In this document: positions 42,901-48,900 of the stretch, in pieces
How the letters are laid out: every line of letters begins with the position of its first letter
How positions within the stretch are numbered: position 1 is the stretch's first letter
Origin: a virus
Taxonomy: Duplodnaviria > Heunggongvirae > Uroviricota > Caudoviricetes
Virus record (IMG/VR): IMGVR_UViG_2684623127_000007
Reading direction: 5' to 3' (one strand)
Length of the DNA: 64,000 bases
Made by a program: the position numbers

Positions 42901-45900
42901 GAGTCTTCAGAGAACCCGTAATTATTCCCGGTAGTTTTCCTCTGTAGGTTATCAACACATCCTGCGCCTCTAAAATTACGGGACGCTTTTCCGGTAACGG
43001 ACCATCCCCTTCACATAACCCGGCAGCAACATCCATGAAAAACTGCTTCGCCTGCTTTTTCGCCTCAGCTTCGTAAAACTCCAGCGTGGCACCTTCAGTA
43101 CGGTCAAGACTAATCGCCACATCTGGCAACAACAGTGACGGATACCCACCAATTTCCGGTGCCACAGTAACAGTAATCTTATCCGGGTAATTATTTATCC
43201 CTTTAACAACCAGTTCGTATTTTTTCTTCATCACTTTACTCTCCCCGCGCCGCCTTACGCCGGTCTTCTTTAATCTTGAAATACAGGTTCGTCAGATATG
43301 TCAGCAGCCCAAACAGCAGACTCCCCAGCACGCCTATCGCCACCCACTGGGACGGAGAGACTTTGTCCAGCAGCTGCAGTAACCAGTATCCCGTCCCCAC
43401 CGCTGACGTGGTGTATGACACACCCGTTGTGATTTTTTCCATCTGGTACATACCCCGTCTCCCGTTATCCGGAAGCTGACAACAATAAAAAAGCCACCAG
43501 TTAACTACTGATGGCTCTGATAACTCATGCAGGCGTCTCAGACGACCCACTGACACTACCGGTGAGTTTAACGATACCTTCCATTTGACTGGCTCACTTT
43601 TTATGATGATGCCGGTGCATTTATCTCCAGCACCAGACTTTCTATCTCAACGCCATACGCTGCATTTTTTGTAACATCCGTCAGCGTCAGCGCATTCAGT
43701 CCCAGTGTCAGACTGTCTTTTATAACCTGGAATGCCGGGCCAGCCACTCCATTCAGTTTCGGAGTAACCGTGGCACTGCCGGCGGTGAACACCAGCTCCA
43801 GCGTCTGCCAGTCGTTACCGTAATCGCCGAACTCCCCCAGCTTCGTGTTTCCGGCTTTCCTGTGATGCATCAGATTCACTCTGCCGTCAGTGGTCTGAGT
43901 GAAGTACGACATCAGGAACGGATTACCGGTACCCGTCATCGCCACACCATCAGGAACGGGAGCATCCGTATACAGATAAATCCCCAGCCCGAACTGATTG
44001 TTGGTCAGTGCGCCTGACAGGCGGAACTTACAGTTCAGTCTGCCGCCCTGTGTCAGCAGGGTAATTGCGTCATCCACCGGATGCGTCAGGGACCAGGTTT
44101 TATTGCTCTGCCTGGTGATCTTAAATACACCATCTGACAACTGAATTCCGCCATCCTTAATGCTCCAGCCCTGCGCAGCAGCCTCTCCGGCTGCCGGCAG
44201 CAGGGAGATTGTGCGAACGGACGTATCTGCAGACGGACCCGATGGCGTGTTGCCGCCGGGCGAGGGTTTGATTTCCGGTGCCTTACCACTGATGAAGGCT
44301 GAGGTGCGCCCGGCTGCGTTCAGAATAGCGGTTGCCATACGATCCGGAATAATGCTCCTGCGCGCCCATGAACTGAAATGTGTCGGGCGGTTTGATGATA
44401 CCAGGTTTCCATTCGTTCTCGATGCCGCACCGTAATATCCTGATGCCGGAATATCCGGATCTTCTGCCGGCGCGTTAGTGGCGGTATTGACGCCGTTACC
44501 GTCTGTCATGAAGGGCACAAAATAAACGCCCTCACTCTCCCTGTTTTTGTACGCCCCGTAAATGGTGTTGTACTGGGTGCCGTAGGTATTTTTCCAGTAA
44601 TACGTCGTGTCACCACAAATCCACGGCACATCTGCAGCACTGCCACCATGGCACTGCGCGTTAAACACGGAGAGGTCAGCACGAAACTGTGCCAGCATGG
44701 CTGTAAACAGCGCAGGTTGCTGTGCGTGGGTGGCGGCGCTCATGTCAAACTCTCCCTGCATCCAGCACACCGCCAGCAACACATTTTTCGGGTTCTTCTG
44801 TAATGCAGCTTTAGTGCGCGCAATCAGGTCCTGATATAACGGTTTACCCACACCCCAGCGCGCCGAATCCTGGCTGGCCCCCGCGTCCGCACTGAATGTC
44901 CCCTCCGCGCCCTGGGTGAATGCCGAACCACCACGACAGCATGGTACCAGCAGGATCCCCGCGTTATTCGGGATATACGGAAGCAGTTTTTTGGCAATAT
45001 GTAAGCCCTGGCCGACACAGCCGTACTGCCCTTTGCTCAGGTCTGCCTTCGGATGATTCAGCGTACTCATATCCTGCACATCATGCAGGCAGTGGTCGGC
45101 CGGAATAATATCGTTATATCTGCAGGCAGCCCCACCCGGCGTAACTGTACTGCGGCGCGCCAGCTGTTTAATGCGCGGATCCGGAGCATCGTATGAATCC
45201 GGCAGCGGAAGCCCTTCACCGTAAGCCATGGCATTGGACTGCCCGGCCAGTACGATGACGTAGTACCAATCCGGCTCAGTTGCACCACTGACCACCACAT
45301 CACCTTCTGCTGTAATCACCTGCATCAGGGTATAAGGGGTTATGGCCACCGGACTACCAAACGGCTGCCAGCCCTCTTTCAGTTTGTGTGTCAGCTTTTC
45401 CGCAAGGTCTGACGGCGACGCCGCCCTGACAACATCATAATGTTTAAATGTCATTATTCCTCCCCTTTCCGGGATTTTCCTCAACAGTTGCGGGCCACGG
45501 TCCGGCCACAAGGAGAATCAAAAGAGGAGAACCGCAGCCCGCAAAACGAAAAAGGCCGCGCAGTTGCGCAGCCTTATAAACCCTGGTTAAAATCCACACG
45601 ATAAAAATGACAATGCAAGTATCTCATGCTGTTGCCCGAACCCACTCGGGCTTTTTTTTGCATGTAAAAAGGCTCCTGCGATGAGAAGCCTGGATATATG
45701 CCTAATCTCTGTATACAGCATGATGCCGGGTGCCTCCCGGTGAATTCTGCAATGACCAGACAGAATCCGCAACTTGCCTATACAATACGCAACCAAACAT
45801 CTGTCATTATGCCCCGCCGCTCAGGGGGATTCATCATGCAGGATTTTTTTAACAAACGCTCAGCATGTCAGGCAACAGTCAACTGCCTGAATTGTGAGGC

Positions 45901-48900
45901 ATTTAACATTTCACTGTCCGGTGTCTTTCCTGTAATAAAAAGCCCGCAAAAGAGAGTCAGGGCAGATAAGTGTGGTGTGGTGCGTTGTACTGGATTCGAA
46001 CCAGTGACCGATTGCTTAGAAGGCAATTGCTCTGTCCGGCTGAGCTAACAACGCAGAATACCGATAATGGACCGCCACCGGGGACTCCGAATCTCGCACA
46101 GGGTGACGTTCTTTCCTGATGAGCTAGTGGCGGTTGGTGGCCCTTGCTGGATTTGAACCAGCGACCTGGCGATTATGAGTCGCTCGCTCTCACCGCTGAG
46201 CTAAAGGGCCGATTGCTGAATAATAACGACGCATGATTAACTCCGCAATCTCATCCGTTACGAATGATTAAATCCTGTACTTCCCGCACCGTCTGCTCAA
46301 AACGTTCAGTCTCCAGTTCAACGCCAGTTGCACGACGTCCCAGCGCCATCGCTGCTTTCACTGTCGACCCCGACCCCATGAAGAAATCTGCAACCAGGTC
46401 TCCCGGACGACTGCTTGCGCTGATTATCTGCTGCAACATTTCTGCCGGTTTTTCGCACGGATGTTTCCCTGGATAGTACTGCACCGGTTTATACGTCCAC
46501 ACATCGGTGTACGGCACCTGCACCGTCACACCGAAATACCGCCGCAGATGCTTATATTCACTCTGCAGCTCCGCATACTGTCGGTTCAGAGAGGCATACG
46601 TATCCACCAGCTGGTGGTGGGGCTTTCCAGTTCACCCCGCTGATGCTTCTCTTCTGCCACCCGGGCAAACAGTGCCTGTAATTTCAGATAATCGCTTTCG
46701 TTCGGCAGCTGCCACTGACCGGCACTGAACCAGTGCGACACCATGTTTTTCTTTCCTGTGGCATCTGCAATCTGTTTTGCCGTTATCCCCAGGACAGCGC
46801 GCGCATCACGAAAGTAAGCAATCAGCGGGGCCATCACATGCTGTTTCAGTGTCCTACCCTTCGCCTCATACCCGGCATCTTTCGGACGATACGGCCCCTG
46901 ATAATGCTCTGCGAACAGAATGCGCTCTGTGGCGGGGAAATACGCCCGCAGGCTTTCCTTGTTGCACCCGTTCCAGCGTCCGGACGGCTTTGCCCAGATG
47001 ATATGGTTCAGCACGTTAAACCGCTCACGCATCATGATTTCGGTGTCAGATGCCAGACGATGGCCACAGAACAGGTAAAGACTTCCGGCAGGTTTCAGCA
47101 CCCGCCAGAACTGCGCAAGACACTGGTCCAGCCACTTCAGGTAATCTTCATCACCCGCCCACTGGTTATCCCAGCCCTCGGGTTTCACTTTGAAGTACGG
47201 CGGGTCCGTGACTATCAGGTCAACAGAATTTTCGGGTAACGACCGCATAAATTCCAGGCAGTCGGCGTTGATTAACTCACAACTGGATATTTTTACAGTA
47301 TTAAGCATGGATCATTAAGCCTGTCTCTGATAGGCTCATTCTGCTTTTGCGCAAAGCAGTGGGCCTGAGGTTTGCTTGTGAACCCAACGCATGAGCAGAT
47401 GGCTGGTGGGTGCCCCTTACACCCACCAGCCGCCCATTTACCACAAATAAAAAAGCCTTCAGGACTGAAGGCGTCTGTAACAACCAAACTGATAGTCTGC
47501 CAGACCCGCCATAACCAGCTGGGTCAGTATTAACTGGCAGCGTTCGCGTGAAAGGTAAGTATTCTGCGCAATCTCCCCGACTGTCGCCGGGTCGGTAACG
47601 CTTAATTCATTAAACACCACTCTGGCGGTTTCTGTCATATCCTGCTGTTTCAGCATGTCTTTTTCCCTTTTCCGGTTAACGTGACACACCAATAACTCTT
47701 GTCGAAAAAGCCAGCAACCTGAAAGAACGGTATTAATAACCACCAGCGAATTTATTGCGCTGCTGTATATTACGGACACAAAAAAACCACCTTCCGGTGG
47801 CTTCCTTGTGCGAAAAAACTTGCATTTCGCCTCGCGATACAGCTTTGCGAAGCTTACAGGAATTCAAGCTGTTTCTGCGTAAAAAAGCAAGCTTTTTTTA
47901 TCGAAATGAATCGTGCATAGGTACATAAAGCATGTGTTCAGCCACGGCTAACCAACCTGCAATACGTTTCTCACATGTGCTGAAACACCATTCCGGGTGA
48001 GTACGATTTAAACATTCTGCCATTTTTCTCTTACTCATTCCCCGTCCTTCGTACCTTTGCCGGAGAATATTGATTAGCCCGGGATATTCCCCAAGCACCT
48101 CACTGATAACGCGATCAATAATCAACGCCTCTGTGTCTGTACAATGTGACAACCAGCTCTTCTGCTTCCCTCTGGTCATATCCCGAAAAAATGCCTCAAG
48201 TTCCGGTTTTTCCAGCCCGGATTTCTTCATGCTGCGTAAAACCTCATTAACTGCTGTTTTCGTCAGCTTTTTCGAAACCAGTAACCGGTTAAACATATTT
48301 CCGGATTTACCCCCACCGATATACGACCACCGCCCCCACATCCGTAATTTCCCCTGGATCCAGACTGCTTCCAGCGTGTTCAGGCGTAAATGTTCGCCGC
48401 TTTTGCCTGTAATTTCCGGATATATCATATTTACGCTCACTCACTCTCAATTTTGTAAATCTTCACACCCAGCCGTCCACCAGATACTGGCTGACCACGT
48501 ACAATATTGATTTCATCAAACTGCTCATCGTCCATTAACACTCCCGCATGCGTCAGCGCATCCAGCGGTGCTTTCAGAATATTGTCCAGGTCACGACGAC
48601 GCTTATCCGGTGGCTCTGCAATAATTTTTATTGCCAGCCGTCCGGACAGGCTTAATTTCAGTCGCTGCTGGCGAACAATAAGCACCACTGCCCGGCGATA
48701 ACGCTCCCCGGCTTTTGATACAAAATATGTGCTGCCACGGCGTCGCCAGTAAGTGTTCACCGTCGGCGGGTAAGGTAAAACCAAATCTATGAGCATCAGT
48801 CACCTCTTTTACCCGAGCACGCCAGTCGCAAAGGCGTGATCAAGAAAACGAAAAATTAAATCAACCTGGGAACCATGCTTTTCTTCGAACGCCAGCGGAT

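Follow-up and report, generated by a model that had tools for sequence, protein, structure and literature searches.

Prophage Sp9 of Escherichia coli O157:H7 very probably carries a toxin-free allele of the Shiga toxin phage late region, with two small RNA genes at the apparently empty site

The IMG/VR record IMGVR_UViG_2684623127_000007 (Caudoviricetes) provides a stretch of 64,000 nucleotides, hereafter the window, to whose first letter all positions given below refer. The part of the window considered here is centered on a NanS-p-type esterase gene and on the 523-bp spacer (45455-45977) that separates it from a tRNA-Arg gene, and is very probably the late-gene region of the lambdoid prophage Sp9 of Escherichia coli O157:H7, in the form of a toxin-free allele of the late-region scaffold of the phages encoding Shiga toxins (Stx) 1 and 2. 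The initial annotation had described the spacer as an empty cargo slot. The absence of the toxin genes (stx) holds, but the spacer is not empty, as it contains convergent small RNA (sRNA) genes, one of the STnc100 type and the other EcOnc03. DNA that looks "empty" in the late region of a prophage can be regulatory sRNA cargo rather than filler. Sp9 itself, NanS-p in non-Stx prophages, and EcOnc03 and EcOnc28 at the moron site are already published.

The assignment to Sp9 is based on 99.7-99.97% nucleotide identity between the window and Sp9 of strain Sakai across ~13.4 kb, with agreeing annotations. Moreover, a 1-kb probe over the spacer is found at 100% identity in many complete E. coli O157:H7 genomes. 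In Sakai, the counterpart lies inside a feature annotated "prophage Sp9; lambda-like phage" (NC_002695.2, ~1.772-1.777 Mb) and includes ECs_1778 (antiterminator), ECs_1779, ECs_1780 (methylase), ileZ3, argO3, ECs_1781 (esterase) and ECs_1782 (S lysis protein). In the window, the late genes follow one another on the minus strand in the order Q, tR', methylase, tRNA-Ile2, tRNA-Arg, the spacer, the NanS-p-type esterase, and the holin and lysis genes, which is the order first proposed for this DNA, with all elements present on that strand.

Toxin genes are missing from this arrangement, as the initial annotation had stated: tblastn and blastn searches with stx1A, stx1B, stx2A and stx2B over the whole window returned nothing significant (best E 0.12). 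The surroundings are those of Stx phages. Comparison of 43200-48500 by megablast with 50,697 phage records gave 394 matching records, mainly Stx1a, Stx2a and Stx2c converting phages. The upstream flank, comprising a small open reading frame (ORF), the methylase gene, ileZ, argN and argO, is 91.6% identical to the Stx2a phage Stx2_EH2246, and this homology stops at position 45937, equivalent to a point 56 bp ahead of the stx2A ATG. The downstream flank is 94.4% identical to the Stx1a phage Stx1_14040 from position 45911 on, the equivalent of 40 bp past the stop codon of stx1B, while homology to the sequence following stx2B begins at ~45896, 46 bp after its stop codon. Alignment with the flanks of stx had been suggested as a means to challenge the idea of a common late-region scaffold; it shows this late region to be related to those of Stx phages, and no sign of unrelatedness was seen.

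Between the homology to the upstream flank of stx2 and the homology to the downstream flanks of stx1 and stx2 lies an stx-free junction of ~25 bp (45912-45936), delimited with blastn and MAFFT. Directly after tRNA-Arg, this junction is where stx would be expected to sit. Relative to the Stx2a phage, ~1.34 kb consisting of the stx promoter region and stxAB is cleanly absent. A remnant of the start of stx2A in the junction was considered and rejected: the MAFFT global similarity of 45913-45935 to the ribosome-binding region of stx2A is weak, and it was treated as chance because the bases from 45909 on align much better with the sequence that follows stx1B. Judged from its gene content, the prophage does not qualify as a Stx-converting phage, which carries both stxA and stxB, but it shares the homologous scaffold. 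Sp9 is without the stx operon, which is an optional moron of this site. The site of the operon is sharply bounded, between tRNA-Arg and the STnc100-type sRNA gene, and the late region of Sp9 offers a clean reference for a Stx-phage late region devoid of the toxin cassette.

The junction is widespread. A 121-bp probe (45870-45990) has 767 matches, distributed over 490 of the 5,426 complete E. coli genomes compared; 483 of the genomes with a match hold at least 80% of the probe. These genomes include O157:H7 strains (EDL933 at 100%) as well as O111 and O145 strains. The junction also occurs at 97.4% identity in isolated phages that belong to Stx-phage genera but are free of stx, namely vB_EcoP_phi296/315/367 (Traversvirus), PPwrbA_EH2201 (Oslovirus), TL-2011a and Lahn2.

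The spacer had been described as about 450 bp without a convincing ORF. It is slightly longer (523 bp), and indeed the RefSeq annotations of Sakai and PA20 place no coding sequence in it. An Rfam scan of 43000-48600 found matches to STnc100 and AgvB within the spacer. The first corresponds to an STnc100-family gene of the EcOnc27/EcOnc28 type on the minus strand (45660-45868), which matches RF02076 over model positions 1-206 of 206 with 175.2 bits, against a gathering threshold of 47 (E 6.8e-41), and which has its own terminator (45670-45691, minus strand; fold z -3.0). In Tree et al. (2014; PMC4104026), late-strand sRNA partners of this kind are EcOnc28 in Sp9 and EcOnc27 in Sp5 (~235/247 nt). 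The peak of EcOnc28 obtained for Sp9 by cross-linking and analysis of cDNA (CRAC) with Hfq maps within the STnc100 match after correction for an offset of ~135 bp that we infer between versions of the Sakai record.

The second gene, on the plus strand and convergent with the late operon, is EcOnc03 (45599-45659), a short Hfq-binding sRNA of the AgvB/AsxR family, identified by an exact identity of 51 nt (45605-45655, plus strand) to EcOnc03 as published by Tree et al. (2014; PMC4104026). Its match to AgvB (RF02702; 45599-45658, plus strand) scores 56.6 bits, just above the gathering threshold of 56, and the score for AsxR (RF02703) at the same site is 46.8 bits, below the gathering threshold of 63. 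PMC4104026 ranks EcOnc01a/b (AgvB), EcOnc02 (AsxR) and EcOnc03 as the most abundant among the new sRNAs bound to Hfq in O157 Sakai. These sRNAs originate from Sp10/Sp17, Sp5 and Sp9, respectively, and have in common a 3' region of ~42 nt preceded by differing 5' regions of 14-18 nt. The paper also reports validation of EcOnc03 in Sakai by northern blot and 5' rapid amplification of cDNA ends, and it describes sRNAs in convergent orientation at the moron site of Sp3, 4, 5, 9, 10, 11, 15 and 17.

With its conserved 3' domain of ~42 nt, its intrinsic terminator, its convergent orientation and its location between the moron site and the esterase gene, EcOnc03 is a member of the AgvB/AsxR family of anti-sRNAs. 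Position, convergent orientation and the ~42-nt conserved 3' part with its terminator are all features that it shares with AgvB and AsxR (RF02702 and RF02703), whereas its 5' variable region, CGAUAAAAAUGACAAUGCAAG, is unlike both the GcvB-directed region of AgvB and the FnrS-directed region of AsxR. AgvB proper, an anti-GcvB sRNA, was considered and rejected for this locus, as 45599-45620 reads CGATAAAAATGACAATGCAAGT, without the consensus CACAACA of the GcvB R1 target, which PMC4104026 defines as the GcvB-target motif of AgvB. The exact sequences of AgvB and AsxR are absent from the window, and no target of EcOnc03 was found in the consulted passages of PMC4104026.

The two terminator-like hairpins noted initially are both real, but they do not face the same way. 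The first (45552-45575, minus strand), a 10-pair stem followed by TTTTTCGTTTT, belongs to the late strand and precedes the esterase start by ~100 nt; it folds with -19.1 kcal/mol (z -3.3) and is 100% conserved in a Stx1a phage (L002). The second (45634-45651) is on the opposite, plus strand, is followed by T8, and is the intrinsic terminator of EcOnc03. A putative, unconfirmed promoter of EcOnc03 was recognized by eye, composed of TTGCGC (45564-45569), an 18-bp spacer and TAAAAT (45588-45593). It would place the -35 hexamer inside the hairpin at 45552-45575, and the pair was not called by the promoter scan.

The two sRNA genes are not particular to Sp9. Rfam searches locate STnc100 79 bp after stx1B in the Stx1a phage, followed by an identical copy of EcOnc03, 75 bp after stx2B in the Stx2a phage, and directly after argO in the stx-free vB_EcoP_phi296. 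In PPyecE_EH1910, STnc100 and a true AgvB (96.5 bits) are found just upstream of the esterase gene. From ~45909 to the esterase gene, the spacer is the same block as found downstream of stxB in Stx phages, and the sRNA module is part of the scaffold and not of the "slot." The closely related, stx-free PPyecE_EH1910 (L001) has other cargo in place of the tRNA block, between the methylase gene and the sRNA module (4112-5710 of that locus): a "plasmid stabilization protein" with a transcriptional regulator, resembling a toxin-antitoxin pair, and a TciA/TerB-like protein, after which come STnc100, AgvB and the esterase gene. The different cargo of this phage supports the idea that a moron site of variable content precedes a constant block of sRNA, esterase and lysis genes. 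In the Stx2a phage EH2246 (L003), the place held by EcOnc03 in Sp9 is taken by an iraM-like gene, encoded on the opposite strand and located between STnc100 and nanS-p (4927-5250 of that locus).

That the spacer could nevertheless be non-functional filler with chance hairpins, as the expression "empty slot" implies, agrees with the lack of coding sequences in the RefSeq annotation and of any spacer ORF with family support. This is hardly credible given a covariance-model match over the full length of STnc100 at 175 bits, the conservation of the module in Stx1, Stx2 and stx-free phages, hairpin fold z-scores of about -3, and an exact match to EcOnc03, which PMC4104026 presents as abundant, Hfq-bound and validated in Sakai. 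It is just as improbable that a small protein is the real cargo. ORFs of 40-116 aa do exist in the spacer, for instance at 45587-45796 (minus strand) or 45698-46048 (plus strand), and the homologous stretch is labeled "hypothetical protein" in one phage record (YYZ-2008/BP-4795). These ORFs were rejected as cargo: they overlap the sRNA genes or cross tRNA-Arg in antisense, begin with TTG or GTG or have no Shine-Dalgarno sequence, and are not annotated in O157 genomes by the prokaryotic genome annotation pipeline (PGAP), and the 5' half of the block differs among phages by indels that would disrupt reading frames.

How the toxin-free state arose is a separate matter. A Stx-converting phage from which stxAB was precisely deleted could be the ancestor of the prophage, which would make the region a decayed toxin locus. 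Both flanks of stx are present and adjacent, the esterase shares 97.4% of its residues with its counterpart in Stx1a phages, and identity to a Stx1a phage is ~99% in the 3' half of the spacer, while the argN remnant, the methylase frameshift and the insertion sequence (IS) described below are other signs of decay; moreover, Zhu et al. (2026; bioRxiv 10.64898/2026.05.13.724894) raise repeated loss of stx as a possibility for esterase-linked sRNA loci. We regard such a loss as rather unlikely, since the window contains no stx remnant even at E<=1, the identical junction recurs in several serogroups and in phages of other genera, and the moron model, as cited in PMC4104026, has stx as an addition. 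Because one breakpoint is common to such different backgrounds, the distribution of the junction speaks for one old stx-free allele that recombines widely, and against recent deletions that occurred repeatedly. A further step, for now speculative, would be to see in the ~25-bp junction the ancestral, never-occupied insertion point of stx. If the junction were ancestral, it would define the exact limits of the ~1.34-kb cassette (promoter, stxAB and ~40 bp), and the cassette would be exchanged among late regions through recombination between the flanks on the argO and the STnc100 side. Separately, and just as speculatively, EcOnc03 could be an anti-sRNA directed against some core sRNA.

Some observations weigh against the reading of this region as the toxin-free late-operon leader of Sp9. 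The esterase differs from ECs_1781 of Sakai at 2 residues, and for the sRNAs a simple promoter scan yielded no more than one weak -35/-10 pair (45871-45843). Furthermore, the methylase frameshift and the IS insertion represent decay of this copy of the prophage, in which Q-dependent induction may be lost.

The esterase gene (43601-45454, minus strand) codes for a NanS-p-type sialate O-acetylesterase of 617 aa (ECs_1781), whose annotated start is the ATG at 45454, after GGAGG, and not the TTG at 45511 of a longer ORF. Three Pfam domains score above their gathering thresholds: DUF1737 (PF08410, residues 3-47), SASA (PF03629, residues 66-262) and DUF6645 (PF20350, residues 467-577). Residues 59-379 match NanS/YjhS (PDB 3PT5; E 4e-121 over 321 residues) and residues 421-613 the crystallized C-terminal lectin-like domain of NanS-p (PDB 6YP6; E 1.4e-29). 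In the alignment with 3PT5, the serine of AGQSNAM (Ser73) and the histidine of THFSS (His359) are conserved. We take the catalytic dyad of 3PT5 to be Ser19/His301, hence Ser73/His359 in the phage enzyme. The chromosomal NanS (YjhS) is alike in its SASA/SGNH catalytic domain, its GQSN serine and its HFSS histidine, whereas the phage enzyme adds the N-terminal DUF1737 and the C-terminal lectin-like domain (DUF6645, 6YP6-like).

The esterase gene lies in the lambdoid late region downstream of Q and of the moron site and upstream of the holin gene S, and the order is the same in Stx phages; together with the domain and structure matches, this confirms the initial identification of a NanS-p-type esterase at the place where Stx phages carry nanS-p. 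The esterase has every feature of NanS-p that can be recognized at the level of sequence, and de-O-acetylase activity on Neu5,9Ac2 is predicted. Its identity is 99.7% to ECs_1781 of Sakai, 97.4% to NanS-p of Stx1a phages, 60% to NanS-p of Stx2a phages (35% in the C-terminal domain) and 53% to NanS of phi296. All tested nanS-p alleles of the EDL933 prophages reportedly encode an active enzyme (PMC10462455, PMC8065619, the latter citing papers with these results), and active NanS-p esterases from non-Stx prophages have been reported (PMC10462455, PMC8065619). Downstream, the first gene of the holin/endolysin lysis cassette is that of holin S (43236-43451, minus strand), at the position of ECs_1782, annotated "S lysis protein" in Sakai and "class II holin" in PA20.

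Upstream of the spacer, all features lie on the minus strand. The late antiterminator Q (47898-48428; ECs_1778) matches the Pfam families DUF1133 (E 1e-110) and Phage_antitermQ and is labeled "phage antiterminator" in Sakai. A GC-rich hairpin followed by T7 (47780-47808), ~90-118 nt downstream of the stop codon of Q, is a candidate tR' that, judging from its position, presumably functions as such; its fold of -26 kcal/mol (z -4.6) was equaled in 0 of 200 shuffles. The small ORF (47459-47656; 65 aa) corresponds to the hypothetical protein ECs_1779 and is annotated in Sakai, PA20 and the Stx2a phage EH2246. A Pfam search with it gave no match, and its 3' end overlaps a second late-strand terminator hairpin found by the terminator scan (47455-47472). 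In 45300-48000, 7 terminator-like sites were counted, versus 2.8 +/- 1.7 in shuffled sequences.

The gene for an N6/N4 DNA methyltransferase (46251-47308) is cut into two ORFs, both of which match PF01555, because an A-run near 46627 (46620-46635) is 1 bp short (AAA instead of AAAA on the coding strand). This deletion is the single gap relative to the intact 1059-bp gene of strain PA20, a length also found in Sakai, and it reflects either a pseudogene or a homopolymer sequencing error. Two tRNA genes follow, identified by ARAGORN, by Rfam and from the Sakai annotation: one with a CAT anticodon (46135-46210; ileZ3, tRNA-Ile2 of Sakai; 70.9 bits) and the tRNA-Arg (TCT) gene argO3 (45978-46054; 71.4 bits). 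The 80-bp gap separating them is filled by a remnant of argN, a tRNA-Arg (TCG) gene (46068-46134), recognized by alignment with the intact argN of the Stx2a phage EH2246 (3132-3208 of L003); its anticodon arm is short by 12 nt, and neither ARAGORN nor Rfam called it.

In all likelihood, the region acts as the Q-dependent leader of the late operon of Sp9. The order of its genes, its terminators and its sRNA genes are read directly from the DNA, and the steps that follow are inferred from the biology of lambdoid and Stx phages and from studies of close homologues. In the lysogen, transcripts from pR' would end at tR', while the tRNAs and the two Hfq-binding sRNAs would be expressed from their own promoters. 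The tandem terminators of the late strand (45670-45691 and 45552-45575) would then shield nanS-p and the lysis genes from transcription of the sRNA and tRNA genes. Upon induction, RNA polymerase that starts at pR' and is modified by Q would pass all terminators, and NanS-p would be made along with the lysis proteins and freed at lysis. Once released, the enzyme could strip 9-O-acetyl groups from the sialic acids of mucin, providing a carbon source for surviving E. coli.

Outside the late region, an IS3-family insertion sequence of 1310 bp (50421-51730) occupies a site at which Sakai Sp9 has none. It is bounded by 25-nt inverted repeats (TGAACCGCCCCGGG...) and contains orfA (51350-51676; HTH_Tnp_1) and orfB (50463-51353; rve). 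The element presumably resembles IS629. In the early/nin region, coordinate mapping from ECs_1772 of Sakai predicts paa, for the AcfC-family adhesin Paa/AdfO, at ~52487-53245 (minus strand); a hok-type toxin gene adjoins paa in PA20. The predicted paa would be virulence-associated cargo unrelated to the late-region slot. At the other end, collinearity with Sakai Sp9 ends at 40852, in or after the Rz/endopeptidase region, and lower coordinates diverge. The downstream part of the prophage therefore differs from Sakai Sp9, as expected for a mosaic.

Among known elements, Sp9 of Sakai is the closest: the gene order is the same, the esterase is 99.7% identical and EcOnc03 is identical. Unlike Sakai Sp9, the window has the 1-bp methylase frameshift and the 1310-bp IS3-family insertion (50421-51730) upstream of the late region, and the two differ by 24 substitutions over 9.6 kb. 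The stx-free Sepvirinae (vB_EcoP_phi296, TL-2011a and PPwrbA_EH2201) share the junction of tRNA-Arg with STnc100, at 97.4% over 45879-45956, followed by NanS and holin genes, but belong to another virion type and genus, with an intact argN, a truncated methylase gene and a NanS of 53% identity. Stx2a phages of the 933W/Sp5 type that have the methylase gene, such as Stx2_EH2246, resemble Sp9 in the block running from the small ORF through the methylase gene, ileZ and argN to argO (91.6%), and have STnc100 after stx2B, with nanS-p and the holin gene downstream. They differ by the presence of stx2AB, an intact argN, iraM in place of the anti-sRNA gene, and a more distant NanS-p (60%; C-terminal domain 35%). 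Finally, the Stx1a phages Stx1_14040, YYZ-2008, H-19B and BP-4795 are 94% homologous to Sp9 from 40 bp after stx1B on, a stretch that covers STnc100, EcOnc03 (identical), the late-strand terminator, NanS-p (97.4% identity) and the holin gene. Unlike Sp9, they carry stx1AB and a different Q and upstream region, and Stx1_14040 is without the methylase-tRNA block, whereas in Sp9 the block of post-stxB type is joined to tRNA-Arg.

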